Source: Candidatus Omnitrophota bacterium
GTDB taxonomy: Bacteria; Omnitrophota; Gorgyraeia; Zapsychrales; Fredricksoniimonadaceae
Assembly: GCA_028870995.1 (NCBI GenBank)
Contig: JAGWOI010000001.1
Span: 100,782-164,781 of the forward strand
Length of the DNA: 64,000 nt
Direction: 5' to 3'
Positions 33,176-53,444 of this stretch are shown in pieces. Each line of letters starts with the position of its first letter. Position 1 is the stretch's first letter. A program made the position numbers and the translations under genes. A model generated the notes under the pieces. That model was not told the origin of the DNA. It saw only the letters and a list, made by a program, of their open reading frames with translations, and did not search any database.

Positions 33176-33187
33176 CAGGGGCATTTT

Positions 33188-36012: not shown

Positions 36013-36968
36013 GCCCCTCAGCCCTCCTTCAACTTTATTATACGCTCGTCAAGATACGGCGGTTTGAAGAAAAAATAGTCGAATTATACCCTTTCCAGAG
36101 AATACGCTGTCCCGTCCATCTTTGCATCGGCCAGGAGGCCATTGCCGCCGGTGTCTGTGCGCATTTGAAAAGGACCGATTTCATGGTCAGCACCCACCGT
36201 AATCACGGCCATTTGATCGCCAAGGGTGCGGGTTTAAAATCCTTATTTGCGGAGATCTTCGGTAAAATAGACGGCTGTTCCCGCGGGAAGGGCGGTTCTA
36301 TGCACATGATAGATCCGGAAAACTCGTCATTAGGGACCTCCTCCATAGTGGCTGCAGGCATCCCGATGGCGTTGGGGACTGCGCTTGCTTCAAAATTAAG
36401 GAAACAGAATAAAGTGAGCGTTGTTTTTTTCGGCGACGGCGCGGTGGATCAGGGCGCTTTCTTTGAATGCCTTAATTTTGCCTCGCTTCATAAACTGGCG
36501 GTAGTTTTTGTCTGTGAGAACAATGCGTACTCGATCAATTCACCGCAAAAGATCAGGCAGGTCAACAAAGAGATACATAAAATTACGGATTTTTTCCGGA
36601 TGCCGGGTCTTTGCATTAACGGAAATGACGTGATCGAAGTATGGAAGCAGTCCGGGAAGCTTGTCGACAGGGCCCGACGGGGCCATGGCCCGTCTCTGAT
36701 GGAAGCCATGACTTTCCGGCATTATGCGCATGTCGGCATAGAGGATGATACGGACAAGGGTTTCAGGGACAAAGGTGAATTAAAACACTGGGCAAAAAAA
36801 TGCCCTTTAAAATTATTTAAGAAGTATCTCATCCATGAGGTAGGGTTGCCTCCTGAATCGATGGCCAGGATAGAGAATAAGATCGAGGGGGAGATCCGGG
36901 AAGCCGTTAATTTTGCCGTAAGCTCACCCTTTCCCGGTAAAGAAGAGCTGGGCAAGGATGTGTATTGA
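36009..36968 (+). CDS. TPP-dependent dehydrogenase E1 component alpha subunit (pyruvate/acetoin dehydrogenase-like)
   Basis: 'GDGAVDQGAFFECLNFASLHKLAVVFVCENNAYSI' TPP-binding motif. Confidence 0.8.
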   Translation: MSPSALLQLYYTLVKIRRFEEKIVELYPFQRIRCPVHLCIGQEAIAAGVCAHLKRTDFMVSTHRNHGHLIAKGAGLKSLFAEIFGKIDGCSRGKGGSMHMIDPENSSLGTSSIVAAGIPMALGTALASKLRKQNKVSVVFFGDGAVDQGAFFECLNFASLHKLAVVFVCENNAYSINSPQKIRQVNKEIHKITDFFRMPGLCINGNDVIEVWKQSGKLVDRARRGHGPSLMEAMTFRHYAHVGIEDDTDKGFRDKGELKHWAKKCPLKLFKKYLIHEVGLPPESMARIENKIEGEIREAVNFAVSSPFPGKEELGKDVY

Positions 36969-37984: not shown

Positions 37985-37993
37985 GCCCAACCC

Positions 37994-39112
37994 ATGCAGA
38001 ATTCAAAGAATGAGCTTAAGCGGCTTGAGGGAATAAAGAATGATGAAGTCCTGGTAGGCCCCCGAAGCGTTTCCATCGGGATCACCAGAATATGCAATAT
38101 TACCTGCAAATATTGTCTTGGTCAGCCTTTTGATCATCTTGATTCCAAGAATGTGGTGGATCGGCCGCCGTATATAGACATGGCCATTTTTTACAGGCTC
38201 GTGGATGATTGCTCTGAGCTTGGAGTTGAGTCCATGACCCTTTGCGGAGGCGAGCCGACCCTCCACCCGCAGATCAAGGATATGATCGCCTATGTCAGGG
38301 GCAAGGACATGCAGGTGTCCATCAATACCAATGCGACATTCAAAGAAGAATTGGTCAAGGAGTTGGGGCAGGTTGCGGCCCTTAATATCGATCTGGCGAC
38401 GCTTAAAATGGAGGATTATCAAAGTATCCAAGGAGGCACGAAACATCAGTTCAACAGGGTCCTGGCCAACATAAGCGCTGTTGCCGAGTTCAAGAAGGCG
38501 AACAAAGGTCCTGAGCTTAAGATCGTTTATGTCCTGAACAAGGATAATTTTGATCAAATTGATGAAATGATCAAATGGGCCGTCAAAACAGGCATTAACA
38601 GCATTTATTTTAAGATCATGCGGTTTAATGAAAATATCAAGGACCTGGCGATCCTTGAGCCGGATGTCGTCCGGCTTAAGAATTCCCTGCAATTGGCGCT
38701 CAAGAATGGGCTTTATAAGCATATTAAAACCAACCTCAAGGAATTGGCCCGTTTTGTTCTGGATGTCAAATTCAACAAGGAATGCGAAACCATAAATTTT
38801 TATGACTTGTTTGAAGGCGATCTCTATTTCCATGCGTCTTTCAAGGAAGGTTTCAAATGCTATTACGGCTGGTATTCCGCCGACATCGGTCCCTGGGGGC
38901 ACGTGATCCTTTGCTGTACCAACAGGATGACCTTTGTGGGCAATATCTATGAGTATTCCTTCAAAGAGATCTGGAATTCTGCTTATGCCCGGCAGATCAG
39001 GCTCACCATGAAAAATCAATTCGATATCAATAAGAATTTCTTCAAGCCTTGCCATTACTGCCCTAATGTCCATTTTAATACTACGATAGATGCGGCAACG
39101 CAGCACGGTTGA
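37994..39112 (+). CDS. Radical SAM / SPASM-domain protein (paralog family member 3)
   Basis: 'GITRICNITCKYCLG' and 'CGGEPTLHP'. C-terminal 'ILCCTNRMTFVGNIYE...CHYCPNV'. Confidence 0.8.
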   Translation: MQNSKNELKRLEGIKNDEVLVGPRSVSIGITRICNITCKYCLGQPFDHLDSKNVVDRPPYIDMAIFYRLVDDCSELGVESMTLCGGEPTLHPQIKDMIAYVRGKDMQVSINTNATFKEELVKELGQVAALNIDLATLKMEDYQSIQGGTKHQFNRVLANISAVAEFKKANKGPELKIVYVLNKDNFDQIDEMIKWAVKTGINSIYFKIMRFNENIKDLAILEPDVVRLKNSLQLALKNGLYKHIKTNLKELARFVLDVKFNKECETINFYDLFEGDLYFHASFKEGFKCYYGWYSADIGPWGHVILCCTNRMTFVGNIYEYSFKEIWNSAYARQIRLTMKNQFDINKNFFKPCHYCPNVHFNTTIDAATQHG

Positions 39113-39140
39113 GCCGATCAAAAGGCCGCAGGGAGGAGTT

Positions 39141-39869
39141 ATGTTCTTACGATCTGGGATATTGGCGGTTGTTCTGTTGATATCTGGTGGCATTTATTGC
39201 CAGGCCCAGGGTGTTGAAGAAGCCTCAAATCCCGGTCCGGGCGTGGATGAGCTCATCCATAAACAATTAAATTTGGCTAAATATGAGGCGGTTTTGGGCG
39301 ATTTGTCGTCATGTGCAGGAGATCCGGGCTGTATCGCCGATGCGGCATTCATTAAGAATACGGCTTGCGCCGCTGCCGCGTGCAGGCAGGGTAAGGATCC
39401 CGTTGATTGTTTCAGTTCCAATGAAATTTCCTATAATTCCATGCCACAAAAGGCAAGGATCATGGATTCGATATGCGCCTGGATAAAATCGCCAAGCCCA
39501 GAAACAAGGCAAGCGGTCTTACAGCAGATTCCCAATGCGACGGATCGTGATTTGGCGGGGCAGCAGGCGTATCTTGCGGCCCTGCAAGGGTCTGCCGAGA
39601 AATGCCAGGACATTGTTAAGAATTATATCGGCCCCTACGGCCCGGCATGGACGACAGAGTTGTACGTAACCTTATCCGGCTGCCGCATCCTTGCCAAGGA
39701 GACGACAGTTCAAGAGGAAGAAAGAAGTTTTCTGATATGGTTTGAGGTCTCGCAGGGGAAGGGGCAGTGCGCCGATATCCCTATTCCTGAGATGCAAAAA
39801 GCATGCAGTTCTCCGGGAGCTGTGGTTTTATTACGGGGCACAGACCAATACAGCCCTGTTAACCAATAA
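39141..39869 (+). CDS. Secreted Cys-rich protein (10 Cys in the mature part) of unknown function
   Basis: Start is the ATG at 39141 after SD GGAGG. Signal peptide 'MFLRSGILAVVLLISGGIYCQAQG'. Lies between rSAM paralog 3 and the GT39-like gene. Confidence 0.4.
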   Translation: MFLRSGILAVVLLISGGIYCQAQGVEEASNPGPGVDELIHKQLNLAKYEAVLGDLSSCAGDPGCIADAAFIKNTACAAAACRQGKDPVDCFSSNEISYNSMPQKARIMDSICAWIKSPSPETRQAVLQQIPNATDRDLAGQQAYLAALQGSAEKCQDIVKNYIGPYGPAWTTELYVTLSGCRILAKETTVQEEERSFLIWFEVSQGKGQCADIPIPEMQKACSSPGAVVLLRGTDQYSPVNQ

Positions 39870-41306
39870 ATGAAATCCCTGACCTGGAAAGCGAAAGAGC
39901 CGTACATTGTTTTAACTCTTTTTATCATCGGATTCTTTATAAGGCTTTACCGCATTGATGCCCCAGGTTTATGTGATTTTGAAATAATTACCGCCCTGCG
40001 GGTCCACCAACCGTTCTGGAACACCATCTTTCTTGCCGGTGAATCGACATTCCCGCCGCTTTATTATATCTTTCAAAATTTATGGGTGCACGTGTTTGGG
40101 GCAAGTGAATGGGCATTAAGGTTCCCGTCAGCCGTTTTTTCCAGTTTGACCATTATTGCCGTTTATAAGCTGGGATCCGAACTTATTGGTAAAAAGGCCG
40201 GCCTTATAGCCTGCGCCTTAATGGTTTTTTCGCCTTTTGCCGTTAATTATGCGCAAATGGCAAAGATGTATTCATTGTTCTGGCTATTTTCGACGGTCAC
40301 TTTCGTATACTTTTTCCGTCTTTTCAAAAATGAAAGCAGGGGGAACTGGTTTTCTTACGCTTTTGTTTCCCTATTGAGTTGTTACACCATGTACACGGGG
40401 TTTTTACTTCTCGTGGCACAGAACCTGATGTTCTTTATGATGGGCGCAAGAAGGCAATGGAAAAGGTGGCTTTTATGCCAGGCCGTCATTATTTTATGCT
40501 GCATTCCCTGGATCGTGTTCTTCTTGAGTTCCAAGCATGTCGATTATGATTTTAACCTGCCGTACTCGGGACTTAATTATTTCACTTTTTTGGGTGAGGC
40601 ATTCGTATGGCTCATTGGTAATTACAATGACCGGGTTTGGAGCTTGAATTTCCTTTTGGATGTTTTCCTGCTGGGCTGCTTTCTGGCGGGCGCCTTAAAT
40701 CTTTATTTGAAGGAAAAGAAACTTGCCTTGAGATCAAACCACTATGGTCTTTTGATGTGGGTTGTGATCCCTATTGTTTTATATTTCATTGCGGACAGAG
40801 CATATTTGCATACCTTTAAAGATACCAGATTAAGGTACATAGGGTTTATTCAAGTTCCGTTATTCTTGATGATAGGCAGCCAAATGATCAATTTCCGCGG
40901 CTGGGCAGGGAGAATCCTCATTTCAGCGGTGTTTATCCTGGCCCTGAATAACACCTATGTGTATTTTAAAGAAAATTTAAGACTGCCTCAGCAGGATTGG
41001 CGTGTTTTGACAAGGGAATTAAGCGCGAAAGTAGGAAAGGACGATGTTGTTCTATTTTCTGATGACTATACGATGAGGGTGTTTGAATACTATGACAAAA
41101 AAGATACCGGCAGGTTTTTCGAGGTGTCTTTGGCCCATTGCTCATCGTCATTATTATCGAAGCTGGGAATTCTTAAACCCGCGACCAATTCCATCTTTAT
41201 CGTATATGGCAAACCGCAGGCCCCGCAAATGGAATTGAAGGGGTATTCTTTAACCTACCGGGATTTTCTCGGGGGCACAAACTTTCTGCAATATCAGCGC
41301 AATTAG
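39870..41306 (+). CDS. GT-C fold membrane glycosyltransferase, family 39 (ArnT / protein-O-mannosyltransferase-like)
   Basis: 478 aa polytopic. The N-terminal region 'FIIGFFIRLYRIDAPGL...' is typical of GT39/GT83 enzymes that use polyprenyl-phosphate sugars. Confidence 0.6.
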   Translation: MKSLTWKAKEPYIVLTLFIIGFFIRLYRIDAPGLCDFEIITALRVHQPFWNTIFLAGESTFPPLYYIFQNLWVHVFGASEWALRFPSAVFSSLTIIAVYKLGSELIGKKAGLIACALMVFSPFAVNYAQMAKMYSLFWLFSTVTFVYFFRLFKNESRGNWFSYAFVSLLSCYTMYTGFLLLVAQNLMFFMMGARRQWKRWLLCQAVIILCCIPWIVFFLSSKHVDYDFNLPYSGLNYFTFLGEAFVWLIGNYNDRVWSLNFLLDVFLLGCFLAGALNLYLKEKKLALRSNHYGLLMWVVIPIVLYFIADRAYLHTFKDTRLRYIGFIQVPLFLMIGSQMINFRGWAGRILISAVFILALNNTYVYFKENLRLPQQDWRVLTRELSAKVGKDDVVLFSDDYTMRVFEYYDKKDTGRFFEVSLAHCSSSLLSKLGILKPATNSIFIVYGKPQAPQMELKGYSLTYRDFLGGTNFLQYQRN

Positions 41307-42844
41307 GCATTGTTTAAAGCAAGCCCGCTGTCCTTGGTCCGTAATAAATGCCATTTTGTCCTTAAAAGCTGGTCTATTTGCGTGTTTTCAGTGCCTATAA
41401 AAAAGTTTCTGATCAAAAAGAATAACCGCCACGGCCTGGTTATATAGGCGGTCAAATAAAACATCAAGCATAGGAAATATTGAGAGAATACTAAAAATTG
41501 CCTTCCCATCCTGGGGTTATATGTCCTGGAACTTTTGCCTGAACGCGCCAGGGAGGAATAATAGTAATCCGTGCCCCAGGTCATTCGACCTTCTTGGATC
41601 AGTTTGTTCGTATCGGCGCTGCCGGGATACGGGGCGAACATCATAAGGGCGGCATCCTGACAGCCGATCCAGGCGGCTTTGATCAAAAATAGCAACGACT
41701 GGAATTGGTCCCGCAGGGTTTCCTCGGGATGTCCGACGATCATATTGATACGCACATACATTCCCGCTTTGCAGGCAGAACGGACCGCGGAAAGAACGTT
41801 GGCCAATTTAACATTCTTTTTCATGACCCTTAATAATCTTTCTGATCCGCTCTCCGGCGCTAAAACGATGTTCCGGCATCCCGTCTTGTACATCATGCGC
41901 AGCGTTTCAAAATCCAGGGCCTCGCTACGGGTCCCGGTGGGGAGCTGCCAGGTCAGGCTGAACGGTTGTTGGGAAAGAATATCGCAAAATTCCCGTATCC
42001 ATTCTTTTCGGATGATGGAGGTAAGGTCGCAGAAATTCAGATTATTAATATTATAAGATTGGACATAGGTCTTGATTTCGTCCACGACATCAGCCGGCGG
42101 CCTGGTTATATAGCGGTTGCCCCACATGGAGGCATTTGAACAAAAAGTACAGGCGTAGGGACATCCGCGCGTGGCCAGAATAGGCATGGAACGACCCCGG
42201 TGGACCCCCCACGCGTCTTTCTTCGCAAGATAATTTTCCACCGGTATGAGATCCCAAGCGGGCCGGGGCAAGGCGTCGATATGTTGTATTCTCTTTGAGG
42301 GAGGGATGGCCTGTGAAGGCCCGCTTTTATAAGCGGCCACCCCGGGTAGGGAAGAGGTCGCTTCCCCGGACTCAAGCGCATGGATCAGTTCTATTATCTT
42401 ATGTTCTCCTTCGCCTAAAACACAATAATCAACGGCATCTGTTTCTTCAAATATCCTGTTCCAAAAAGCCGTCGCATTCTCCCCTCCCAGGATGATGATC
42501 ATGGAAGGATAACGTTTTTTGATCTTTTCGGCGATCTCACAGAGCAGGGGCCACTCGTGCAGGAACATATTTGTCATGCCGACTATGCGTGAATCAGGCG
42601 GGATGCGCTCCACAATGTCATCCGGCGACAGGCCCTGGCGTGTTAATGAATCCAGGGAACTGGGAATGGCTTCAAAGCGCTCTAGGGCCGATCCGGCCGC
42701 GTCGATGACAAAAACCTCGTGCCCTTCTTGACGGATAATAGCCGCGATATAGGCAAGCCCGATGGGCAGGCACGCGCCAAAAAAACTAAAGTTGGATTTA
42801 AGCTGCAGGATGGGGGGGCGGATCAAACAGATCTTCATAGCCAT
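41303..42844 (-). CDS. Cobalamin-binding (class B) radical SAM protein
   Basis: Start refined to M34 (ATGGCTATGA overlapping the GT2 stop). 'MKICLIRPP...' Rossmann-like B12-binding N-domain, then 'ATRGCPYACTFCSNA'. Confidence 0.8.
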   Translation of the reverse strand: MAMKICLIRPPILQLKSNFSFFGACLPIGLAYIAAIIRQEGHEVFVIDAAGSALERFEAIPSSLDSLTRQGLSPDDIVERIPPDSRIVGMTNMFLHEWPLLCEIAEKIKKRYPSMIIILGGENATAFWNRIFEETDAVDYCVLGEGEHKIIELIHALESGEATSSLPGVAAYKSGPSQAIPPSKRIQHIDALPRPAWDLIPVENYLAKKDAWGVHRGRSMPILATRGCPYACTFCSNASMWGNRYITRPPADVVDEIKTYVQSYNINNLNFCDLTSIIRKEWIREFCDILSQQPFSLTWQLPTGTRSEALDFETLRMMYKTGCRNIVLAPESGSERLLRVMKKNVKLANVLSAVRSACKAGMYVRINMIVGHPEETLRDQFQSLLFLIKAAWIGCQDAALMMFAPYPGSADTNKLIQEGRMTWGTDYYYSSLARSGKSSRTYNPRMGRQFLVFSQYFLCLMFYLTAYITRPWRLFFLIRNFFIGTENTQIDQLLRTKWHLLRTKDSGLALNNA

Positions 42845-43638
42845 TTTTTGACCTTTACTCTCCAAAAGGCGCGCATAAAGACCGCCAGTATCAATATAGA
42901 ATCTTGAAAACGCCGTATTTGCGAGATCCCATACTCCCTGCATTTGTAATAGATGGGTATCTCCAGGACCTTCAGCTTTAGGGCAGATGCGCCCAACAAC
43001 AGGTCAATGTCCCCCCAGGGGTCCAGGGGTTCCCGGGAATCCGGTTGAACGCATATAGCATTATAATCTTTCCTGAACAGGGCTTTAATTCCCCCTAGAA
43101 CATCCGTCAGGCGGATCCCCAACAGCCATGACAGGTAAAGGGCGGAGAGCTTGTTCCCTATCAGATTTAAAACAGGCATGGCGCCTTTTTCCATGGGTAA
43201 AATTAGCCTCGAACCGCAAATCAATCCGGCTTGGCCCTCTTGAAGGGCGGCATAAAATTTTATCATATCCTCAGGCATGATCGTCAAGTCCGAATCAAAA
43301 ATGATCACGATATCCCCGATGGAATGCGCCAAACCAAGGTATACGGCGTCATTCTTGCCGGTATTGGTCTGGGTGAATAACTTAATGGTCTTGTCCGGAT
43401 AAGCCCTGATGACCCTGTTGATCTCCGCGCCGGTGCCGTCTGTCGAATGGCCTTCCACAAAGATGAATTCCTGGCTGGCTCCAAAAGAGGGGGTTCGCTT
43501 AATGATGGTCTCGATGTTATTTTTTTCATTCTTACAGGGGATTATGATCGACACACGATATTCGGGCCGCTTCCAATCCCGGTTCTTGGTAAATCCCGCC
43601 TCAGAGTCCGGCTTCGTTCGTTTTGTAAGATTTTGCAT
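42835..43638 (-). CDS. GT2 family glycosyltransferase (polyprenyl-phosphate sugar synthase, Dpm1/ArnC-like)
   Basis: 'VSIIIPCKNEKNNIETII...EGHSTDGT...DSDL' GT-A DxD-type motifs. Confidence 0.7.
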   Translation of the reverse strand: MQNLTKRTKPDSEAGFTKNRDWKRPEYRVSIIIPCKNEKNNIETIIKRTPSFGASQEFIFVEGHSTDGTGAEINRVIRAYPDKTIKLFTQTNTGKNDAVYLGLAHSIGDIVIIFDSDLTIMPEDMIKFYAALQEGQAGLICGSRLILPMEKGAMPVLNLIGNKLSALYLSWLLGIRLTDVLGGIKALFRKDYNAICVQPDSREPLDPWGDIDLLLGASALKLKVLEIPIYYKCREYGISQIRRFQDSILILAVFMRAFWRVKVKKWL

Positions 43639-44692
43639 TTTTTGCGCTCAAATTAAGGATATCCCGGGCGTTCTTGTCATGAAGGAGGTTTTGTTTGCAA
43701 TAGGGGCATCTGGCACAAAAGTCCTCCTCGCTGTTCTGCGGAAAAGGATTAAGCCATCGTAACCGGGTCTTCTGTGCCTGGGGGCTTTCCCATATTTCTT
43801 CCAAGGTGCTGTCATTCAAATTCCCTAAAAACGTGTACTTATTTAAACAGCAAAATCTGACGCTGTTGTCGGAATCCACATAAAGCGAGAACCAGCCTTC
43901 ATAACAGTGCGGGGGGCGGCCGGAGTCCGGGAACTTTAAGCGGTGCGCGATCTCTTTAAGATTATGTTTGAAAGGCCAGTCTTTTTCGCTGTTGACGAGG
44001 CATAGGTGCCCTAGAAGTTCAAGGTCCTTTTGATCAGGGGACAAGAATTTGGTTTCCTCGATCGCATCGAAGAATTGAAAACGCAATCTTTGGATCCCTG
44101 CTTTTTCGGCCCATTTGAGCATCGGCTCCATCAGGGGGATGGTTTCATGGGTTAAAATAAAAATTATTTCCATGCACGGCTTCTTATATTTTTTTTCCAG
44201 GCTGACCAGAAATTTGATGTTCCTTAGGACAAGATCATACATGGCCGGATTCCTGGGGGCCTGGATCTTTATGAAACTCTCCCGGTCCGGAGAACAAAAA
44301 TTAACAGTCGTCCTTGCTATTTTTGATATAGAGGGCGCATCCTGCCGCGAGAAGGTGGCGTTGGTAAGCAGATCGATGGCAATGTTTCTGGACGAAAATT
44401 CGGAGACGATGTCCCGAAAATGAGGATGGCTTGTCGGCTCGCCGCGGCCGATAAGGGTGATTTCCCTGACGTTCCAGCGCGTGGCGGCTTCGGCTATCCG
44501 GCGGATCAAGGCCATGCTCATGGCCTTTTGCCGGGGTTCCTGTTTTTTAATCAAATAGGACAGGGTGTAACAAAAGGAACATCTTAAGGGGCATTCGGAG
44601 ATGATGTTAAGCAGGATCCTCTCCGGCCCCGCCAGAAGTTTTTGCTGGGCCGCACCGATGATGCGTAAATGATCCGGCGATAAAGAGTCCAT
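43601..44692 (-). CDS. Radical SAM / SPASM-domain protein (paralog family member 4)
   Basis: 'SECPLRCSFCY' and 'GRGEPTSHP'. C-terminal 'FCCLNKYTFLGNLND...CARCPYC'. Confidence 0.8.
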   Translation of the reverse strand: MDSLSPDHLRIIGAAQQKLLAGPERILLNIISECPLRCSFCYTLSYLIKKQEPRQKAMSMALIRRIAEAATRWNVREITLIGRGEPTSHPHFRDIVSEFSSRNIAIDLLTNATFSRQDAPSISKIARTTVNFCSPDRESFIKIQAPRNPAMYDLVLRNIKFLVSLEKKYKKPCMEIIFILTHETIPLMEPMLKWAEKAGIQRLRFQFFDAIEETKFLSPDQKDLELLGHLCLVNSEKDWPFKHNLKEIAHRLKFPDSGRPPHCYEGWFSLYVDSDNSVRFCCLNKYTFLGNLNDSTLEEIWESPQAQKTRLRWLNPFPQNSEEDFCARCPYCKQNLLHDKNARDILNLSAKNAKSYKTNEAGL

Positions 44693-44701
44693 CGCTTAAC
44701 C

Positions 44702-45973
44702 TTAATTATTCATGAGGACTTTACATTTTTTATGCAGGTCGCTCAGTTGGGCGTAATCTTCGTAGCTATTGACGCAAGGCCATAACCAGGGATGGAGATT
44801 TTCAAGGCCTTTATGCGCAATATCTTCACGGCAATTCATATATTCCGTCGTGCCGGGAATGGGCGTAAAGGGCATTAATTCCGGACGGCATCCGGCGTTC
44901 AAGACATCCAGGACCGTGTCTTTAACATCCTTCACGTTCTGGTTTGGCATCCCGGCCAGGATAAAGGCATTGGCCAATATCCCCGCCTTTTTGATCGATT
45001 TCATTATCCTCTGGAAGGCGGGCAATTTATGCACGGAGTGGAATCTTTTGACGGCCGTTTCCCGGTTGTTGGTTTCAACAGATAATGACAGGCGGTTGAC
45101 ACCCGCCATTTTCATTTTAACGAGCAGCGCCTCACTTAGTAAGTTGGGATTCACCCCTTCGGGAAAGGACAAATTAATCTTAATTTTTCTAATGATGATG
45201 AGGTTCAGGAAGCGTTCAAAATGTTCCTTGGGGTTGACCAGGATGCTGGATTCCCACATGGCGACTTTTTTGATCTGGTATTTGTCGATATTTTCCTGGA
45301 TTTCATCGACGGCATCTTCAGGATCGCGCCAGCGCATCGCATTCCCTTCAAGCACATGGACCGCACAATAACTGCATTTGCTCGGGCACCCGCGGCTTAT
45401 TTTCAGGATCATATAATTGGGGGGAGGTTCCAGCAAATCAAGGGCCAGACGGCTGTGGTTCGTGGCGTTCAATTCTCCGATATAAAGTTCGGCCCCCGAC
45501 GTTTTGGCGTGGTCGGGACACAGGGTCGGATAAATGCCTCCCATGGTGATCTTGGCGGACGGAAATGTTTCCCTGCAGATTTTAATGACTTCGTGGACGG
45601 ATTCCCATTGATAAGTAAAGAATGAGGTCACGTAGATCTCGTCCGGTTTTTCCTGCTGTTTTAATTTCTGCCGGATCTCTTCAAAAGGCGTTCCTATGTG
45701 GAATAGGGGGCTGAATATTTCCTTGTCCTTGAAGTTTCCGACCCGCCTTTTGCCGATCTGGTGCCTCTCGGCCGCTTCATCGTATTTGATGTCGCCGGCA
45801 CAGTTTATCAATGAAACGTCATGGCCCTGGTCCCTGAAATAGGAGGCCATACGCAATAAAGCAACAGGAAAAAATGCCGTCATGTTCTCAATCCAGATGC
45901 CCATGTCATCGAAATTCTCGGGCCAGACTTCATACCTGGGAGGATTGATCAAAAGGATACGCTTTTTTATCAT
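44702..45973 (-). CDS. Cobalamin-binding (class B) radical SAM protein
   Basis: 'KKRILLINPP' B12-binding N-domain and 'ISRGCPSKCSYCAVH'. Confidence 0.8.
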   Translation of the reverse strand: MIKKRILLINPPRYEVWPENFDDMGIWIENMTAFFPVALLRMASYFRDQGHDVSLINCAGDIKYDEAAERHQIGKRRVGNFKDKEIFSPLFHIGTPFEEIRQKLKQQEKPDEIYVTSFFTYQWESVHEVIKICRETFPSAKITMGGIYPTLCPDHAKTSGAELYIGELNATNHSRLALDLLEPPPNYMILKISRGCPSKCSYCAVHVLEGNAMRWRDPEDAVDEIQENIDKYQIKKVAMWESSILVNPKEHFERFLNLIIIRKIKINLSFPEGVNPNLLSEALLVKMKMAGVNRLSLSVETNNRETAVKRFHSVHKLPAFQRIMKSIKKAGILANAFILAGMPNQNVKDVKDTVLDVLNAGCRPELMPFTPIPGTTEYMNCREDIAHKGLENLHPWLWPCVNSYEDYAQLSDLHKKCKVLMNN

Positions 45974-46154
45974 CTTTTTTCCTGTGAGCTGAAGACCTTC
46001 TACCGTCGATTATATAGCTGTTGGTTTTTAATACAAGAATAATCTCACTCGATGTTGGCTCTAAAAAAGCAATTCATTCAAGGGAAACATGTTACAATAA
46101 ATATACCATATTCAAAGCGGCAAGGACTTAAAAAGGACATTAAATCGAGGGGGT

Positions 46155-47039
46155 TTGATCATTGATCCTATAAATTTCAGCAGTCAGCTTCTAGTCCTTC
46201 TCCTGGGCCTTGTGACGAGCTATACCGATATTACCGAAAAGAAGATCAAGAATGTTCATCTGATCGTCATTGGCGCTGCGGCTGTAGCCTTGGGGTTGAT
46301 GCAGGCGCCACCGCATCCGGCATCGGCGCCCGATACTTTCGTGAATGTGCTGGTGGCTTCTGCCATCGGCATTCCGCTTTTTATTTCCCGTATGTGGCGT
46401 GGCGGGGATGTCAAATTGTTCATTGTGTATTCCCTCCTGATGCCGGCGACGGGGCAGGAGGGCGTTTTTTTGGCCAGCCCGGTCGTTCTATTCATCAGCA
46501 GCTTTCTTGCGGCACTGATGATTGTCCTTCCTTTTGAAATTTACGAAGTTTTTTGGACCAACAGGCTTTCCCTTAAATCAAAGGAAATTTATTGGGACAA
46601 CATAAAACTCGCGTTCTTGGGGTTCGCCTCGTTCAATTGGATAATATTCTCCTTTTTTTACAAATTGAAATTCTTTAAATACCCTCTGGTGGTGGCGGTG
46701 TTCTCGGTCCTGTTGTTCCCGTTCCTCAACCGATGGGTCATGAAATGGGCTCAAAACGCGCTCGGCCACTGGAGGAATATTATTATGCTGGCGGTCATGG
46801 CCGGGTTTATCATTCATCTTTTATTTATCCCCAGGGAATTCTTCTGGACCGAGCTGGGACGCTCGGTCAGGTCCATCTTCATCTTCAGCACGATTTTTTT
46901 TATTTTTAAGTGTGCGATCGACAAGGCCAATGTATCCAAAGAAAGGATGCCGTTTGCCCCTATGCTCATGATAGGCTATTACGCGAGTTATACGGGTTTT
47001 TTGAAGAAGGTCGCATCGCTGATCATGTGGATGAGATAA
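46155..47039 (+). CDS. A24-family prepilin peptidase-like membrane protein (TadV/CpaA-type, no methyltransferase domain) with extra C-terminal TM helices
   Basis: First catalytic Asp context 'SYTDITEKKIKN'. Second Asp in 'RMWRGGDVKLF', matching the GGGDVKL motif. Polytopic. Confidence 0.55.
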   Translation: MIIDPINFSSQLLVLLLGLVTSYTDITEKKIKNVHLIVIGAAAVALGLMQAPPHPASAPDTFVNVLVASAIGIPLFISRMWRGGDVKLFIVYSLLMPATGQEGVFLASPVVLFISSFLAALMIVLPFEIYEVFWTNRLSLKSKEIYWDNIKLAFLGFASFNWIIFSFFYKLKFFKYPLVVAVFSVLLFPFLNRWVMKWAQNALGHWRNIIMLAVMAGFIIHLLFIPREFFWTELGRSVRSIFIFSTIFFIFKCAIDKANVSKERMPFAPMLMIGYYASYTGFLKKVASLIMWMR

Positions 47040-47121
47040 AATGTTGGTTGGAGGGGGCTTTTTAAGCTGGTATACTATGACCATAATGACCATTTCAGGG
47101 ATTTAAGCGACAGGAGGTGTA

Positions 47122-48270
47122 ATGGCGCCTTTTAACATGCCAGAAAGTGTTTATCAGGCCTATAAAAGCGATTTCCAAAACGGGGTGGTGACGCTGGGAA
47201 ACCTCTGTAGCGCGAAATGCACTTTTTGCTCCCAATATTGGAACCCTTCGGGGGTCATTCAAAACCTGGAAAGATTGTTGACCTGGGAAGAGGTGAAGCA
47301 TTTTATAGACGAATACCTGGTCAAAGTGGGTGAAAATCCGCATGTTTCGCCTTCCATAGGTTCAGCCCTTCATGCCAATAGCGGAGAGTTTTTCCTTCAT
47401 CCGAATGCGGCCCGGATCTTGGAATATTTGAAGACCAACAATAAGCTGGAAGATAACCAGATGGTCATTTCCAACGGCATGAATTTTAGAAAAGAGCACA
47501 TTGAGCTGCTTAAAGGCCTGAAGATCGGTATTCAATTGTCCTTGTTTGCCACGGATGTCTCGGCCAGGATGGATGTCATGAAAGGCTCATTATCCCAGAA
47601 TCAAAGGGCGATAGACACCCTGGATCTCTTTGAAAGCCAGGGGATAGAGTACGGGGTGACCATTGTCCCTTATAAAAAATATTTGCGTAACGGGGTCATG
47701 GAAAAGATTTTCAGCGACTTGAAAGGCCATCACGTCAAGGAATTTGTCATGCATAAACCCGGATACACTAAATTGACCCCCGCGAACATCGTGGAAGAGT
47801 TGAATATCCCTGACCAGGAACTGCTGGATTTTGGTGCCATGATATGGGACAAATATCAGATGAACGTGCGGATCGAGGGGGTGCTTCCCGTGGAGAAGAA
47901 CGTCTCCGAATTCCTGCGCCTCAGCAAGTCTTTAGAGCCGTTGCGGAATCTGGGGAATAAATTCAAGCTCTTCTTGTGTTCCCCCAAGGCCCACAGCCTG
48001 ATCAAGCTTGTCTTAAGGAAAATGGAGATGCAGGACTATGAGCTGAAGCCCGTTGAATCACATGTATTCGGAGGGAGCGTCGATTGTGCGGGCCTTTTGA
48101 CCGTCGAAGATTATGTTATAGCCATTAATGAATATTTGACCGGCGGCGGCAAAAAGGTCGATTTTATCGTCATGTCAAAAAGAAGTTTCGACATCAATAA
48201 GGAAGACCTTAAAATGGTGTCCGTCTATAAGTTGGAGGAAATTTTCAATGCCAAGGTGCTGTTAGTTTAA
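47122..48270 (+). CDS. Radical SAM protein (non-SPASM; DUF512-like C-terminal region)
   Basis: 'VTLGNLCSAKCTFCSQ' CxxxCxxC. 382 aa. Confidence 0.7.
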   Translation: MAPFNMPESVYQAYKSDFQNGVVTLGNLCSAKCTFCSQYWNPSGVIQNLERLLTWEEVKHFIDEYLVKVGENPHVSPSIGSALHANSGEFFLHPNAARILEYLKTNNKLEDNQMVISNGMNFRKEHIELLKGLKIGIQLSLFATDVSARMDVMKGSLSQNQRAIDTLDLFESQGIEYGVTIVPYKKYLRNGVMEKIFSDLKGHHVKEFVMHKPGYTKLTPANIVEELNIPDQELLDFGAMIWDKYQMNVRIEGVLPVEKNVSEFLRLSKSLEPLRNLGNKFKLFLCSPKAHSLIKLVLRKMEMQDYELKPVESHVFGGSVDCAGLLTVEDYVIAINEYLTGGGKKVDFIVMSKRSFDINKEDLKMVSVYKLEEIFNAKVLLV

Positions 48271-48275
48271 AACTT

Positions 48276-49937
48276 ATGAAAACCCCGATGCGTTTAAAAA
48301 TAATAAAATCGCCCCGTTTCAAAGGGGAGACGGATTATCTCCCGCCGCTGGCCATTTCCCAAATATATTCATTCCTGAAAAATAAGGGTTTTGAAATCTC
48401 CCAGGAGGATTTAAACCAGAGGGAAGTCCCCTCCAAAAAAGATATATTCGGGTCTACCTACAAAAAGAGGCTGAAAAACATATTTTCCAGGGAGTTTTCC
48501 GCTTATTTAACGACGGGTAAGGATGATCATTATGAAGCGATCGCCTCCCAATATTTGTCATCCGGGGAAATGGACTCGATCGATATCCTGCTGGTTTCGA
48601 TCTGCTATTCCGATTTTTGTTCTTCCATGGCGGCCCTGTTGATAGCCAGGTATTTTAAGTCCAAGAATAGAAATAAGCTGGTCATCATGGGCGGGGAGTC
48701 CATAGAGAAGTCTTATATTTATGAGGGTTTTGAAAAATACAACACCTTGGGCATTGTGGATTATTATATCCTCGGCCCCGGCGAAGAATCCTTGCTGATG
48801 CTCCTGAAAAGAATACAAGGGGAGGCCCTCGACCCTAAAAAGATCCCGGGCCTGTGTTACAGGCAGGACGGCCAGGTCTTTAAAAATGACCCCATCCGGG
48901 ACGCAGCCCTCGTGCCCCCTGACTTTACGGGCTTATCGTTGAAGAAATACAGCTGGGACCAGTCGGAGATTTTTCACAGCATGTCTCCCAAACTTTTCCC
49001 CCGGCGCGAGATCCTGGTGCTTCCATTCCGGATGATCGACGGCTGTCCTTACCGCTGCGCGTTTTGCGCGTCCCCGGACATGTCGCAGGCCAGGACCTCC
49101 TCGGTCGATCCGCAGGAGGCGGTCAGCGTGTTGAAAAGATTGACGGCCGAACACAACGCCAAATATTTTATGTTCCTGCATGACACCCTTAATTTTTCCA
49201 AGGCCTTCATCAATCATTTTTGTGACGAGCTGATCAAGGCGGATTTGGACATACGGTGGTCGGACAGCTTAAGCCCCTTGGCGGTGGACGGCCCCGAGGT
49301 GTTGAATAAAATGTACCGGGCCGGCGCCCGCCGGGTGTTTTTCGGCCTGGAATCGGCCAGCACCAAGCTGCAGGCGTATACCGGGAAGAATGTTAATCCG
49401 GCTAGAGCGGCGCAAATCGTGAAATGGGCGCATGAAGCGGGGCTCTGGACCGGCGTTCAGGTCATCGCCGGATTTCCTCACGAGACAAAAGAAGACATAC
49501 AATCCACCGTGGATTTCATTATAGACTGCGCGCCTTATCTGGATGTTGTCAAGCTGCAGAAGTTCTATCTGCGCCGCTATACCTATATGCATTCCGATGC
49601 CAAGAAATACGGCATCACTAACATCAGGGAGTACGATGATCTGCCGGAATTGGTGGTCCGGCAAAGGGGCCAGAACAGATACCGCTTTGATGAAATCGGC
49701 GGGCTTGAGTGGAATCAGAAGGAAAAACAGATTGAACGTTCCTACCGCACATTCGACCGGCTCATCACAGAATATAGACTAAAATCGTACAGCCCCAGGG
49801 ATGAACTGAATATTCTTTTTTACCTGTATGAATGTCTGGAGGATAAAAAGAGGATCAAATCCGCATTTGACATATACCAGGCCGAACTTAAGAAAGTCAA
49901 TAAACTGAGCCTGGACCTGCAGGACCTGGATGAGTAG
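48276..49937 (+). CDS. Cobalamin-binding (class B) radical SAM protein
   Basis: N-terminal B12-binding-like domain and 'IDGCPYRCAFCASPD'. 553 aa. Confidence 0.8.
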   Translation: MKTPMRLKIIKSPRFKGETDYLPPLAISQIYSFLKNKGFEISQEDLNQREVPSKKDIFGSTYKKRLKNIFSREFSAYLTTGKDDHYEAIASQYLSSGEMDSIDILLVSICYSDFCSSMAALLIARYFKSKNRNKLVIMGGESIEKSYIYEGFEKYNTLGIVDYYILGPGEESLLMLLKRIQGEALDPKKIPGLCYRQDGQVFKNDPIRDAALVPPDFTGLSLKKYSWDQSEIFHSMSPKLFPRREILVLPFRMIDGCPYRCAFCASPDMSQARTSSVDPQEAVSVLKRLTAEHNAKYFMFLHDTLNFSKAFINHFCDELIKADLDIRWSDSLSPLAVDGPEVLNKMYRAGARRVFFGLESASTKLQAYTGKNVNPARAAQIVKWAHEAGLWTGVQVIAGFPHETKEDIQSTVDFIIDCAPYLDVVKLQKFYLRRYTYMHSDAKKYGITNIREYDDLPELVVRQRGQNRYRFDEIGGLEWNQKEKQIERSYRTFDRLITEYRLKSYSPRDELNILFYLYECLEDKKRIKSAFDIYQAELKKVNKLSLDLQDLDE

Positions 49938-49942
49938 CCTCC

Positions 49943-51184
49943 ATGAAAAGAATCATTATTTATTACTCACACAGGCAGACGCTGGGGCATCAGAGCCGTG
50001 TGGCCAACATCGTCGCAAGCCTTCATACAAACTATAAGAAAAAAGTTAAAGTTTTCCTCTTTAATGCCGGCTTGCCGGAAGAGTTCATTCAATTCCCGCC
50101 GGGGACGGTGTGCATCAACATCCCGTTCCCTTTTCACAGCAAACAGGATTTCAGGGTTGACCGCAAGAATTTCTCCCGTGGAGACGTCAGTTCCCGCTCC
50201 CAGTTTATGCTGAAACAAATTGAAAAGATAAGGCCGGATGTTTTTATCACGGAATTTTTTCCATTCGGAAGGCCGGACCTGATTGAAGAGATATTCCCTG
50301 TTTTGCGTCTTGTGCATTCCCGGGGAGCCAAAATTATAAGCAGCCTCGGGTATCCGTATATAAACCCTTTCTTTTTTAAAACGGAAAGCCGGAAAATCTA
50401 CACCTTGCTTGCCAAATTTTATGAAACCATCCTGGTCCATACGCCTGACGGGCTTGAGGAAGCTTATGCCCTGAAGTCTTTGGGGGATGCCCAAAACGAG
50501 CATCCAAAGGGCGGCTTGACTAAATCGTATACCGATGCCTTCTCCGTGGTGAAAGACAAGATCGTTCATACAGGCTATATCGTTCCCGCAGGGATAAAGA
50601 ACGTGTCCCGGCCGGTTTTGGTGAATAAGATAAAATCCCGGGAGAGGATTTTTGTTCTGGTCAGCCGGGGCGGCGGAGTTATTTATCCGAAACTTCTGAC
50701 GAGCGCCATCCAGGCCAAAAGGATTTTGGGGGACAAGTTTGTTTTTTTGATCGTGCCGGGGCCCTCTTCCACCGGCGCGGAAATGGCGCTCTTTCGTTCG
50801 TTGATCGATAAGGCCGGCCCTGAGGGGATCGAGATGCGGCCTTATGTCCCGGATCTGTTCAAATATATCCGCTTTTGCGATGTTTCTATAAGCATGTGCG
50901 GCTATAACACCTCTGCTGAATTATTATTTTTTCGCACGAAAAGCATTGTTGTGCCCTGGAGGCTCTGGGAAAATCAGGATAACTCGTACTATAATGACCA
51001 GTTGACCCGGTCCTATCTCTTAAAAGAATACCTGGGTTCCGGGGTGGTCCAATACAACTCCATTTCCGCAAAGGCGCTCGCCGACGGTGTACAAGAGCAG
51101 ATGGCCAAGGACCCGCCCAAAGAGATCCTTAAGGCATCGGATTTTGAAGGGGCTTATTTTACGGCCGCAAGGATCATGAGCTGA
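49943..51184 (+). CDS. GT-B fold glycosyltransferase (GT1/GT28-like), paralog B
   Basis: 'IIYYSHRQTLGHQSRVANIVASL' N-terminus parallels paralog A. Confidence 0.55.
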   Translation: MKRIIIYYSHRQTLGHQSRVANIVASLHTNYKKKVKVFLFNAGLPEEFIQFPPGTVCINIPFPFHSKQDFRVDRKNFSRGDVSSRSQFMLKQIEKIRPDVFITEFFPFGRPDLIEEIFPVLRLVHSRGAKIISSLGYPYINPFFFKTESRKIYTLLAKFYETILVHTPDGLEEAYALKSLGDAQNEHPKGGLTKSYTDAFSVVKDKIVHTGYIVPAGIKNVSRPVLVNKIKSRERIFVLVSRGGGVIYPKLLTSAIQAKRILGDKFVFLIVPGPSSTGAEMALFRSLIDKAGPEGIEMRPYVPDLFKYIRFCDVSISMCGYNTSAELLFFRTKSIVVPWRLWENQDNSYYNDQLTRSYLLKEYLGSGVVQYNSISAKALADGVQEQMAKDPPKEILKASDFEGAYFTAARIMS

Positions 51185-52178
51185 CGGAAGCTTTGGACAG
51201 GGCTTTTCGGGCCATCGCCGGGTCGAACAGAGGGTCCGCCGCCAACGGGGTGCCGTGGGCGCGCAAGGCCATGGAACGGCTGCCTCCCCGGCAGGTGTCA
51301 AGCACGGGGCAGCGCCGGCACAATTCCGGCAGATAGCCGGTCCCGGAGAGCTCCTTAAGGAACGGGTGTTCCCACGCCTCGCGGATGCTGCGTCCTAAAT
51401 TTGTTTCCAAGAAATAATTTGGTTTAAAGAATCCCCTGGCGCTGCGCACGAGGCGCAAGTGCCCTTCGTCCAGCCTGGCCCCCAGAAAGACCTTTTTGCC
51501 GATCTGAAGATCGCCCGCCACGCATAAGGGGGTCGGGTTGGAAACAAAAGCATTGATCCGGTCCCTGCGGATCTTCATGATCTCAAGGGCCAGCTTGCGG
51601 AAAAACAGGGGGTTCATTTCCTTTAAGGCCTCAACCGAATCGCTGATCGGACGCTGCAGAAGCCACGCCGCAGGGTTGATCTTCTTGATGAGCGGAATAA
51701 AGGGCGTCAGTGAACGCTCGGAGTCGGAAGTGATGACCGTCGCCGTCCACAGGACCGGCAAGTAGGCCTTTAAAAGAAAGATATTCTTCATTTTATCAAG
51801 GAAAGAGACCTTGGAACCGGTATAGGCGGTGTTGGCCTTCTCATCGTACCCCTGCAGCGAAACATGCGCCACATCGACGGTGGCGATAATGGTTTTCATG
51901 GCGGCAGGGCTGATGTTGTCGGCAGAGGTGTTAAGGATAATGGCCAGTTTCCTGGCTTTGGCATAGGACAAGATGGGGCGAAAATCCGGATGGAGGGTAG
52001 GTTCCCCGCCGGTGATACGGACGGCCTTTACCCCGAGACCGGCGGCCTCGTCTAGGGTGGCTTTAATATCTTTGAACGGCACGTCAGGGATCCGCGGACC
52101 GGTGCAGTAGGTGCAGACCTGCCGGCAGCGGCCGGTGATTTCAATGATGATCTCTGAGGGCAAAGATGGTCGTTTCAT
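51174..52178 (-). CDS. Radical SAM protein with C-terminal twitch/SPASM-like Cys cluster, co-transcribed downstream of the Cys-rich pilin-like gene
   Basis: 'ITGRCRQVCTYCTGP' and 'TGGEPTLHP'. C-terminal 'PLCVAGD...CRRCPVLDTCRGG'. There is a 21-nt gap to the upstream pilin-like gene. Confidence 0.75.
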   Translation of the reverse strand: MKRPSLPSEIIIEITGRCRQVCTYCTGPRIPDVPFKDIKATLDEAAGLGVKAVRITGGEPTLHPDFRPILSYAKARKLAIILNTSADNISPAAMKTIIATVDVAHVSLQGYDEKANTAYTGSKVSFLDKMKNIFLLKAYLPVLWTATVITSDSERSLTPFIPLIKKINPAAWLLQRPISDSVEALKEMNPLFFRKLALEIMKIRRDRINAFVSNPTPLCVAGDLQIGKKVFLGARLDEGHLRLVRSARGFFKPNYFLETNLGRSIREAWEHPFLKELSGTGYLPELCRRCPVLDTCRGGSRSMALRAHGTPLAADPLFDPAMARKALSKASVSS

Positions 52179-52199
52179 GGCATCAGGGCAGGGTGGCCT

Positions 52200-53444
52200 T
52201 TAACAATTATTTCCGGTGCACCCGTAGTCTATAGAGATGGAACACAGTTGGGAAGGCAGGCCTATTGCACCGCATCCTCCATTGGTGGGGGACAGGGCAG
52301 GGTTATGATAGGTGTTGGAAGCCGTGTTTCCTGCCGGGAGTGCGTACGCCGATTTAACAGAGGTGGCTGTGCTGGTAGTATTAAGGCAAATTTGAAAACT
52401 TTGATTGTTAACGGTGACCCAGCGGGAGCCGTAATTGTACCAGTGACAGCTGTCTGAAGCAAGCTTGGTGGGGTTGCTGCTGTTGGTTGACGGGTCACAG
52501 GACGGGTCAAAAGCGTCCGGCCCGTTGCAGCAGGAGGCGGCCACGTTGAAATCCAGGGAGCAGGTGGCCTGGGTGCGGTCCGGCGGATTGGGCGGTGTCA
52601 GTGTATAAGGAGGATTGCAATATAGCTCGCATTTAGAGTTGCCGCCGCAGCTGGATTGAGGGGTGTCACAGCTGGATGAACTGTCCACGTAACAATACGG
52701 TGTGTCTTGTTTCAAGCCGGCGGTGGGGACCGTATCGCAAAATGTGGCTGCATTTTGGAAAAGGACAAACCCGGTGCATTTGGGCAGAGGGCAACTGCCG
52801 TCTAGAATACAAAACTGAGAGCTGTTGGAACCGCAGGCATAGCCGTATATTTGCTGGCCGTAATAACAGGAGCTGGTTGTGCCGGTGGCTTGAGGCGGAC
52901 AGCAGGTGGTGTTTGGATTATTGTATATGGAGTTTGGATCGCTGGTGGTCGGGCAATAGCTGTGTGCGGCAGGGCCGCTGCCTGCAGGACAATAGCAAGG
53001 GCCGCTGATACCCGCAGGCAATGAAGGGCATGTGAACGCGTGGCCCTGGTTGGGCAGCGGAGCGCTTCCGCACCCCAAGGGTTGAGGCGTGTTGCAGCAG
53101 CTTTCGTCCAGGACGCAGGTTTCCGCCCCGGCGGAGCCGTTACAGCCGGGGAGATTGCAGTTAAAGTGGTATTCGCGCTGATTGGCCGCGCACAGCGAGC
53201 CGTTTTGGTTGGTCCCGCAGGACCCTGCTTCCGAGGTGCAATGGCAATTCAAAGGGATATCCGGGACGTTGTTGACGGGCGCCTGGTTGATGATTTCTTC
53301 GGCGGATTCCCTGACGCTTACGTCCCACAGCCTGAAATGCGCATTGACGGAACGAAGCACATAACTGCCCATGAATACAATCCCCAAAATCACGAGGATG
53401 GCAATTAAGATATACTCAATGATGGACTGTCCGCGTTTATGCAT
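52200..53444 (-). CDS. Cys-rich (about 37 Cys) type IV pilin-like protein with class III (prepilin) signal peptide
   Basis: N-terminus 'MHKRGQSIIEYILIAILVILGIVFMGSY' has Gly at -1, Glu at +5 and a hydrophobic helix. The remaining ~380 aa is Cys/Pro/Thr/Ser/Asn/Gly-rich low-complexity sequence ending in a Cys. Divergent from pilM. Confidence 0.6.
   Translation of the reverse strand: MHKRGQSIIEYILIAILVILGIVFMGSYVLRSVNAHFRLWDVSVRESAEEIINQAPVNNVPDIPLNCHCTSEAGSCGTNQNGSLCAANQREYHFNCNLPGCNGSAGAETCVLDESCCNTPQPLGCGSAPLPNQGHAFTCPSLPAGISGPCYCPAGSGPAAHSYCPTTSDPNSIYNNPNTTCCPPQATGTTSSCYYGQQIYGYACGSNSSQFCILDGSCPLPKCTGFVLFQNAATFCDTVPTAGLKQDTPYCYVDSSSSCDTPQSSCGGNSKCELYCNPPYTLTPPNPPDRTQATCSLDFNVAASCCNGPDAFDPSCDPSTNSSNPTKLASDSCHWYNYGSRWVTVNNQSFQICLNTTSTATSVKSAYALPAGNTASNTYHNPALSPTNGGCGAIGLPSQLCSISIDYGCTGNNC

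Follow-up and report, generated by a model that had tools for sequence, protein, structure and literature searches.

We describe a Cys-rich, pilin-like protein of 414 amino acids (aa) and the radical S-adenosylmethionine (SAM) enzyme encoded next to it in a 64-kb stretch of DNA (the window) from a metagenome-assembled genome of Candidatus Omnitrophica/Omnitrophota. Sequence comparisons place the protein in a large uncharacterized Cys-rich family, the named members of which come from Omnitrophota, and the conserved genomic neighbor of this family is the pilMNOPQ cluster, not a radical SAM gene. On this sequence evidence, the family is a new one among pilin-like proteins, and an enzyme-substrate pair of pilin and radical SAM enzyme is unsupported by comparative genomics. 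The overall explanation, to which we assign a moderate probability, is that the protein is a Cys-rich pilin-like subunit of the PilB/PilC/PilMNOPQ machinery and that the enzyme is the displaced maturase of an Hxs-like cassette.

Omnitrophota are ultra-small, uncultured bacteria, many of them with a presumed predatory or parasitic lifestyle; their attachment to hosts is held to depend centrally on type IV pili, and conductive-type pilins are only sparsely predicted in them (PMC10066038). Our literature search found no description of a Cys-rich pilin family in Omnitrophota, nor of a prepilin peptidase paired with a radical SAM enzyme. The present analysis singles out a large family for which no curated model exists as the pilin-type protein with a conserved place beside pilMNOPQ. 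Its variable Cys-rich head is of no recognized fold and puts the family forward as a concrete candidate for the surface that contacts the host. The idea of a radical SAM-modified pilin draws only on the gene order of one lineage, and attention shifts to an Hxs-like cassette of unusual makeup that is coupled with a peptidase of the prepilin type.

Layout of the pilin-like and radical SAM genes

The two genes, their parts, and their immediate neighbors are as follows.

52200..53444, minus strand: Cys-rich type IV pilin-like protein, 414 aa (P0001), delineated by its open reading frame (ORF), family alignment, and profile search
53430..53444, minus strand: predicted class III (prepilin-type) leader MHKRG, cleavage expected after G5
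53298..53429, minus strand: residues 6-49, hydrophobic alpha1-N and then a conserved amphipathic YVLRSVNAHFKLWD segment
52203..53246, minus strand: residues 67-414, Cys-rich domain
52179..52199, minus strand: 21-nt spacer between the pilin-like and radical SAM genes
51174..52178, minus strand: radical SAM enzyme, 334 aa (P0022), SPASM/twitch-like, with a Radical_SAM Pfam match
52104..52127, minus strand: radical SAM cluster motif C18-x3-C22-x2-C25, invariant in the homolog alignment (A1)
51291..51320, minus strand: C-terminal auxiliary-cluster motif C287-x2-C290-x5-C296
53579..57590, plus strand: pilM, pilN, pilO, a pilP-like gene, and pilQ (secretin), from Pfam families on the second assembly, L050
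49943..51184, plus strand: GT28-like glycosyltransferase, with a Glyco_tran_28_C match

Exact ORF coordinates bear out the arrangement given in the first-pass annotation: the pilin-like and radical SAM genes share a strand and are 21 nt apart, and pilM starts divergently at 53579 (+), 134 nt from the start of the pilin-like gene on the opposite strand. We saw no terminator-like site in the spacer. The two genes are probably cotranscribed in the species of the window, as the first-pass annotation had claimed. At its other end, the radical SAM gene is approached by the convergent GT28-like gene, which overlaps it by 11 nt. The gene order is reproduced on a second, identical assembly (L050). The 414-aa gene is not a chance ORF, because NCBI holds a 100% identical protein (annotated as "hypothetical protein") and because homologs are recovered both by a word-index search (21, the named ones being from Omnitrophica) and by a profile search of 1.84 billion representatives, which retrieved 502 cluster representatives at E<=1e-3 and 109 at E<=1e-30.

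A Cys-rich pilin-like family conserved beside pilMNOPQ

The N terminus of the protein consists of the basic leader MHKRG followed by QSIIE(+5)YILIAILVILGIVFMG, with G at -1, E (E10) at +5, and a hydrophobic stretch of about 20 residues behind this Glu; in the AlphaFold2 (AF2) model, residues 8-49 form one helix. The first ~60 residues are strongly conserved across the family as a short basic leader, the motif [GA]/Q-S-[IV]-[IV]-E-[YL] (where the slash marks the predicted cleavage site), a hydrophobic stretch, and then GPYVLRSVNAHFKLWD. The prepilin motif in its fuller form, [KR][GA]/QS[IV][IV]E[YL], is kept in the family, the columns of residues 6-49 are invariant or nearly so, and E10 is retained in at least 90% of the aligned sequences. 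Of 157 family members, 94 have G at position -1, and the remainder either have A there or are truncated gene calls. By its sequence pattern, this N terminus is built like a class III (prepilin-type) signal and is closest to the GxxxxEY of Flp/TadE-like and archaeal pilins. The Q at +1 recalls the substrates of archaeal EppA and the TadE-like pseudopilins.

The remainder of the protein is dominated by Cys. There are exactly 37 of them, all beyond residue 66, arranged in part as CxC (at 67 and 150) and CC (at 116, 181, and 305), and no CxxC or CxxCH motif was found in the 414 aa. Its commonest residues are S, P, C, N, G, and T. Both the count and the composition agree with the first-pass annotation, which had given about 37 Cys in CxC and CC spacings amid Pro/Thr/Ser/Asn-rich tracts. 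An alignment of 21 sequences reveals a scaffold of 16 invariant and 6 nearly invariant Cys, and the median Cys content across 157 members is 7.9%, irrespective of a nearby radical SAM gene. In the AF2 model, the Cys-rich domain is beta-rich up to about residue 300, and its C-terminal third is of low confidence. Family members have an N-terminal helix of about 45 residues and, behind it, the beta-rich domain. The head domains are highly variable across the family, in which the profile search found lengths of up to 1162 aa. One 539-aa member (P0019; L085 4006..5625) contains a Hint/intein-type domain (PF05203) toward its C terminus, which suggests autoprocessing in some family members.

The genomic context of the family was examined at 53 loci, of which 50 are metagenome loci with flanks of up to 8 kb and 3 (L005-L007) were obtained by exact look-up. 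Of these, 30 have a divergent pilM, which amounts to most of the loci with enough upstream sequence. A six-frame motif scan of the window recovered no second ORF with a prepilin-type N terminus, and the pilin-like protein is its best candidate for a subunit of the PilB/PilC/PilMNOPQ machinery because it is the only one with such an N terminus found by the scan. The identification of the product of 52200..53444 as pilin-like is thus supported by the prepilin-type N terminus, the predicted helix, and its conservation beside pilMNOPQ, and also by a gene in the island for an A24 peptidase that retains both catalytic Asp.

Downstream of the pilin-like gene, the commonest same-strand neighbor in the family is a gene for an APH/kinase-like protein of ~350 aa, found at nine loci (L052, L059, L068, L077, L083, L084, L087, L005, and L006); it was not found in the 64-kb window. 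A PMT_2 gene lies near the pilin homolog in L005, L006, and L052.

The radical SAM enzyme and its Hxs-like context

The downstream gene codes for a radical SAM enzyme with a C-terminal Cys motif of the auxiliary-cluster type, as the first-pass annotation had it. It matches the Pfam family Radical_SAM (PF04055) with 58.3 bits against a cutoff of 29.5, and its Cys comprise the CxxxCxxC at C18/C22/C25, C219, and C287-x2-C290-x5-C296, the last four of which are invariant in the aligned homologs. The fourth Cys of a CxxCx5Cx3C pattern is Ser in the enzyme of the window and Cys in 11 of 19 aligned homologs. Its four or five C-terminal Cys could ligate no more than one auxiliary cluster. The Pfam SPASM model does not match the enzyme, and NCBIfam yields only generic subthreshold matches, with PqqE the best (69.6 bits against a cutoff of 381). 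Its AF2 model has a predicted local distance difference test (pLDDT) score of 74, and its top Foldseek matches are PqqE, SuiB, DesII, anSME, SkfB, CteB, and BlsE, a mixture of peptide-modifying (PqqE, SuiB, anSME, SkfB, and CteB) and sugar-modifying (DesII and BlsE) enzymes. The Cys pattern and these SPASM/twitch neighbors of the modeled fold are consistent with a single auxiliary cluster. Pfam and NCBIfam revealed no RRE/PqqD-like or other extra domain, and the CxxxCxxC starts at residue 18; an RRE is not obligatory in such enzymes, as anSME also lacks one. More than 150 homologs were found, most of them at 55-77% identity across Omnitrophota, and the enzyme is thereby far better conserved than the pilin-like protein.

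The neighborhoods of this enzyme were compared at 42 loci from species-level genomes, with flanks of up to 10 kb. A gene for a membrane protein of the A24 (prepilin-peptidase) family is the immediate same-strand upstream neighbor in 16 of the 35 loci with enough upstream sequence, HxsB occurs no more than 6 kb downstream in 19 of 31 loci (convergently in 18), and a convergent GT28-like gene within ~50 nt is found in 17 of 42 loci and also in the window. The recurrent order is the A24 gene and the radical SAM gene, followed convergently by the GT28-like gene, one to three copies of a family that we call x246, a gene for a ~90-aa protein, an HxsB-type radical SAM gene, and an HxsD-like gene. Among the homologs at ~35% identity (L035, L036, and L037), the glycosyltransferase is absent and the radical SAM gene directly adjoins HxsA3-like, HxsB, and HxsD genes. 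The link with the Hxs-like cassette is the oldest of these associations, because it persists to ~35% identity, after the glycosyltransferase drops out.

The window has such a cassette as well, at some distance from the radical SAM gene.

29851..33175, plus strand: Hxs-like cassette as a whole, ~18 kb from the radical SAM gene
29851..30270, plus strand: HxsD-like gene, 26.6 bits against a cutoff of 50
30283..31668, plus strand: HxsB, 367.8 bits against a cutoff of 370
31672..31944, plus strand: HxsA3-like protein of 90 aa (NF038309, 23.7 bits against a cutoff of 65)
31970..33175, plus strand: GT28-like gene at the end of the cassette

A bona fide HxsC was not found in the window, where the highest-scoring protein reaches 49 bits (cutoff, 268). 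We also considered the radical SAM enzyme itself as HxsC and rejected this identification, as HxsC is not among its best NCBIfam matches. The small HxsA3-like proteins of the cassette (e.g., L001 13027..13296, minus strand) have an invariant Gly (30 of 30 homologs) within a [DNS]E[DSKE]G site, followed by F at +1 and E at +5 (22 of 30 in each case) and a semihydrophobic segment. They end in a His-x-Ser/Thr-rich tail with a terminal Tyr in 29 of 30. On these sequence features, the HxsA3-like protein may be a substrate of the neighboring A24-like peptidase and of the radical SAM enzymes. We take the KDE[DS]G preceding the F at +1 to resemble Flp leaders. This resemblance is weakened by a PDB sequence search, which returned no pilin or Flp match for the HxsA3-like protein and aligned its KDEDG to HEAT/EF-hand-like repeats.

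In our view, the likeliest role for the radical SAM enzyme is that of second maturase in the Hxs-like cassette, with the small His-x-Ser/Thr-tailed protein as its target. This assignment of a substrate is drawn from synteny alone, since the enzyme has no HxsC match and its fold neighbors are mixed. A radical SAM-modified protein with a possible prepilin-type cleavage site in the Hxs-like cassette is a more defensible hypothesis than a modified 414-aa pilin.

The x246 family mentioned above comprises secreted proteins of ~250 aa with conserved Cys. It is represented in the window at 39090..39869 (+) and also in L013, L019, and L028. Its genes usually lie between the glycosyltransferase and the HxsA3-like gene, in some genomes as two or three tandem copies, and profile comparison gave only a faint DUF6931 match.

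Proposed mechanism

Taking the observed gene structures, family conservation, and synteny statistics as the starting point, we infer cleavage, filament incorporation, disulfide formation, and the choice of substrate by the radical SAM enzyme in the following way. The machinery available in the window includes these further features.

18524..24129, plus strand: MshEN-domain protein, two PilB-type ATPases, and PilC
46155..47039, plus strand: A24 (prepilin-peptidase family) membrane protein, Peptidase_A24 with 30 bits against a cutoff of 26.5
11528..12139, plus strand: DsbA-like thioredoxin-fold protein, Thioredoxin_4 with 71.8 bits and DSBA with 53.2 bits

An A24 aspartyl peptidase, for which the protein at 46155..47039 is the candidate, would cleave the precursor after G5. 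PilB, PilC, and PilMNOPQ would then extract the mature pilin-like protein and display or polymerize it, and the scaffold of 16-22 Cys would be oxidized to disulfides outside the cytoplasm. The outcome would be a bulky, rigid, and variable pilus head, plausibly an adhesin of host-associated nanobacteria; adhesion to hosts is plausible because pili have been proposed to be central to host attachment in Omnitrophota (PMC10066038). The radical SAM enzyme, for its part, would take the position of HxsC as the second maturase in the Hxs-like cassette, and a rearrangement of an island rich in radical SAM and glycosyltransferase genes would have placed it behind the pilin gene in the lineage of the window.

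The first-pass annotation had raised disulfide formation through a DsbA encoded at 11.5 kb, and a DsbA-like gene is indeed present there, matched by both Thioredoxin_4 and DSBA. A second protein of this kind, encoded upstream of FtsW/RodA at 16074..17309 (+), has 411 aa and a C-terminal DCC1-like thiol-disulfide oxidoreductase domain. From their domains, the DCC1-like and DsbA-like proteins are candidates for handling Cys-rich exported proteins.

Evidence against the proposed explanation and its alternatives

Several observations weigh against this explanation, and they bear on both the enzyme and the pilin-like protein. On the side of the enzyme, it has no HxsC match of its own, it is encoded in an operon separate from, and convergent with, that of HxsB, and its fold neighbors are both sugar- and peptide-modifying. 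Moreover, its gene keeps company with one of the prepilin-peptidase type in most genomes and with one of the pilin type in the window, a double linkage that could point to a shared pilin-related role, and the island of the closest clade lies wholly between pilus genes. On the side of the pilin-like protein, no curated pilin model of Pfam or NCBIfam matches it above threshold, the best Pfam match of its N-terminal 62 aa being Flp_Fap with 14.9 bits, below the cutoff of 32.2; its AF2 model, built from a shallow alignment, is only modest (mean pLDDT of 61); a structure search with this model found no solved pilin head domain resembling it; and Cys counts in 112 members are odd in 53 and even in 59, which is no even bias. 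We also considered four alternatives.

The first is that the radical SAM enzyme modifies a sugar or glycolipid in the manner of DesII, BlsE, or BtrN, working with the convergent GT28-like transferase in a glycan biosynthesis island, the product of which may be added to the cell envelope or to the Ser/Thr/Asn-rich pilin. We regard this as a serious rival, albeit an unlikely one. It would account for the GT28-like gene beside the enzyme at 17 of 42 loci and in the window, for the presence of DesII and BlsE among its top fold matches, for the PMT_2 genes near the pilin gene at three loci, and for an island rich in genes of the glycan type, namely, GT2, a second GT28, PMT_2, a DUF2334/polysaccharide-deacetylase-like gene, a thiamine pyrophosphate (TPP)-dependent E1, and a B12-radical SAM methyltransferase-like gene. 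However, the glycosyltransferase is missing from the distant loci, in which the enzyme directly adjoins the Hxs genes. Further, N-x-S/T sequons are not enriched in the pilin-like protein (7 observed against 6.5 expected), and the enzyme shows no specific match to a family of sugar nucleotide enzymes.

The second alternative is the one proposed in the first-pass annotation, which had the enzyme modify the Cys-rich pilin before export. The modification would consist of thioether crosslinks of the sactionine or ranthionine type or of an anSME-like oxidation of Cys or Ser. In its favor are the terminator-free, same-strand arrangement of the genes 21 nt apart, repeated in the second assembly; the likely placement of the enzyme in the SPASM/twitch group, with the Cys-directed anSME, CteB, and SkfB among its structural neighbors; the habitual operonic linkage of its family with a prepilin-peptidase-type gene; and, in the closest clade, a pilus-flanked island shared with the pilin. 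Against it stands the comparison that the annotation had itself suggested, a search for pilin-radical SAM gene pairs in other genomes, which recovered none: a pilin-like ORF is found in 0 of the 42 radical SAM loci, and this radical SAM family in 0 of the 53 pilin-family loci within the flanks fetched, 28 of these loci being covered for 1 kb or more downstream. In the closest relative (L001/L005; 53% identity in the pilin and 76% in the enzyme), both genes are on one contig ~25 kb apart, and on Ga0206863_1003 (L021/L053), the pilin and the radical SAM ortholog are again on one contig, ~20 kb apart. As judged from these gene orders, the adjacency seen in the window species is probably a lineage-specific rearrangement. 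The pilin retains its Cys scaffold in genomes without such an enzyme nearby, the enzyme is much more conserved than the pilin, and it has a conserved context of its own, no N-terminal RRE/PqqD-like domain, and just one auxiliary-cluster-type motif. The annotation had also reckoned with an unrelated cofactor biosynthesis enzyme conserved elsewhere without the pilin; the second part of this describes what we find, and the pilin is left unsupported as a substrate because the enzyme is conserved elsewhere without it. Altogether, we consider modification of the pilin very unlikely.

A broader version of this idea holds that the radical SAM family is a maturase of prepilin-leader proteins in general, acting in most Omnitrophota with the A24 protein and HxsB/HxsD on the 90-aa protein and recruited in the lineage of the window also to the pilin operon. 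Were this the case, Omnitrophota would display radical SAM-modified subunits of the pilus type, and it strikes us as no less doubtful than modification of the pilin alone. A prepilin-leader protein may well be a substrate of the enzyme in these organisms, and in that case the data favor the small Hxs-type protein over the 414-aa Cys-rich pilin.

The last alternative concerns the pilin-like protein, which might instead sit on the cell surface as a Cys-rich secreted or membrane-anchored product, for instance one that mediates adhesion or binds metal, with an uncleaved signal anchor and no place in a pilus. No pilin hidden Markov model matches the 414-aa protein above its threshold, scans of the full-length protein against Pfam and NCBIfam gave no match at all, a PDB sequence search with the N terminus found no pilin or Flp, and the weak Flp_Fap match spans residues 4-37 with E=0.023. 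The family is, moreover, unusually large for pilins (to 1162 aa) with highly variable heads, its Cys counts have no parity bias, and it lacks a pilin-fold match. The absence of an even bias means that not every Cys need be engaged in an intramolecular disulfide. Nonetheless, G or A at -1, Q at +1, and E at +5 occur at a fixed spacing behind a short basic leader, which a signal anchor would not require, the synteny with pilMNOPQ is tight and widespread, and the motif scan found no other prepilin-type ORF in the window beside a full pilus machinery. On balance, we hold a nonpilus surface protein to be distinctly improbable. Since the curated models are unmatched above threshold, the pilin call rests on the motif, the predicted structure, and the synteny; what stands of the original identification as a type IV pilin is thus the leader, the E at +5, the helix, the family conservation, and the pilMNOPQ neighbor, and what failed is recognition by the curated pilin models.

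Comparison with known systems

With the Flp/TadE-type (type IVc) and archaeal class III pilins, the pilin-like family shares the short basic leader, the predicted cleavage after G or A, the GxxxxEY motif, and the hydrophobic alpha1, and a further likeness to the Flp/TadE systems is the A24 peptidase encoded nearby, which is TadV/FlaK-like and lacks a methyltransferase domain. Flp_Fap is also the one Pfam family to register on the N terminus, although weakly and below its cutoff. In contrast, Flp pilins are ~50-80 aa in length and are served by Tad machinery, whereas members of the pilin-like family have 300-1100 aa, a head with ~8% Cys and no recognized fold, and synteny with pilMNOPQ, PilB, and PilC of the type IVa pilus type.

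The canonical HXS antiphage system (HxsD-HxsB-HxsC-HxsA) uses two radical SAM enzymes, HxsB and HxsC, to mature HxsA, in a process that includes N-terminal processing, and 99.7% of such systems are found in Pseudomonadota (Li et al., Nat Commun 2026, PMC13128918). The usual neighbors of the radical SAM family described here resemble its components, namely, an HxsD-like protein, a near-equivalog HxsB, and a small His-x-Ser/Thr-rich HxsA3-like protein. Unlike the D-B-C-A order of the HXS systems, the order here is D-B-A, with the radical SAM gene in a convergent A24 operon. The two also differ in that glycosyltransferase and x246 genes are often interposed and in that the HxsA-like protein lacks a peptidoglycan-binding domain.

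Among the radical SAM maturases, anSME, PqqE, SuiB, SkfB, and CteB are the best structural matches that share with our enzyme a CxxxCxxC near the N terminus and a C-terminal CxxCx5C(x3C). Unlike typical SPASM/twitch maturases, the enzyme is unmatched by the Pfam SPASM model, has one auxiliary cluster at most, and is without an RRE, and its only conserved adjacent precursor is the HxsA3-like protein, encoded in a convergent operon.

Pilus machinery and the gene island of the window

The region 18524..22460 (+) codes for a stand-alone MshEN protein and, behind it, a tandem pair of PilB-type ATPases that both include an MshEN domain; cross-hits between the two PilB paralogs indicate ~39% identity. 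The PilB of the window had no record in the contig index. Between PilB/PilC and pilMNOPQ lies an island with ten radical SAM genes in ~22 kb (30283..52178), three or four of them of the B12-binding type. Its other genes code for a GT2, two GT28-like proteins, a PMT_2 (GT-C), and the A24 peptidase, along with a DUF2334/polysaccharide-deacetylase-like protein, alpha and beta subunits like those of TPP-dependent pyruvate dehydrogenase E1, and B12-radical SAM methyltransferase-like proteins. Related islands are present in L001/L005, L003, and L006. We rejected the notion that the radical SAM island is universally flanked by pilus genes, which holds for only 5 of 42 loci, all in the closest clade.

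The A24 protein at 46155..47039 combines an N-terminal peptidase domain with a conserved C-terminal extension of ~170 aa bearing an R..FAP motif. The catalytic Asp pair (D25 and the Asp of GGD85) is kept in 27 of the 29 members of its family that we aligned (that of the window and 28 homologs, from L001-L049). In most genomes, the A24 homolog is translationally coupled to the radical SAM ortholog, and in the window a different radical SAM gene follows it.

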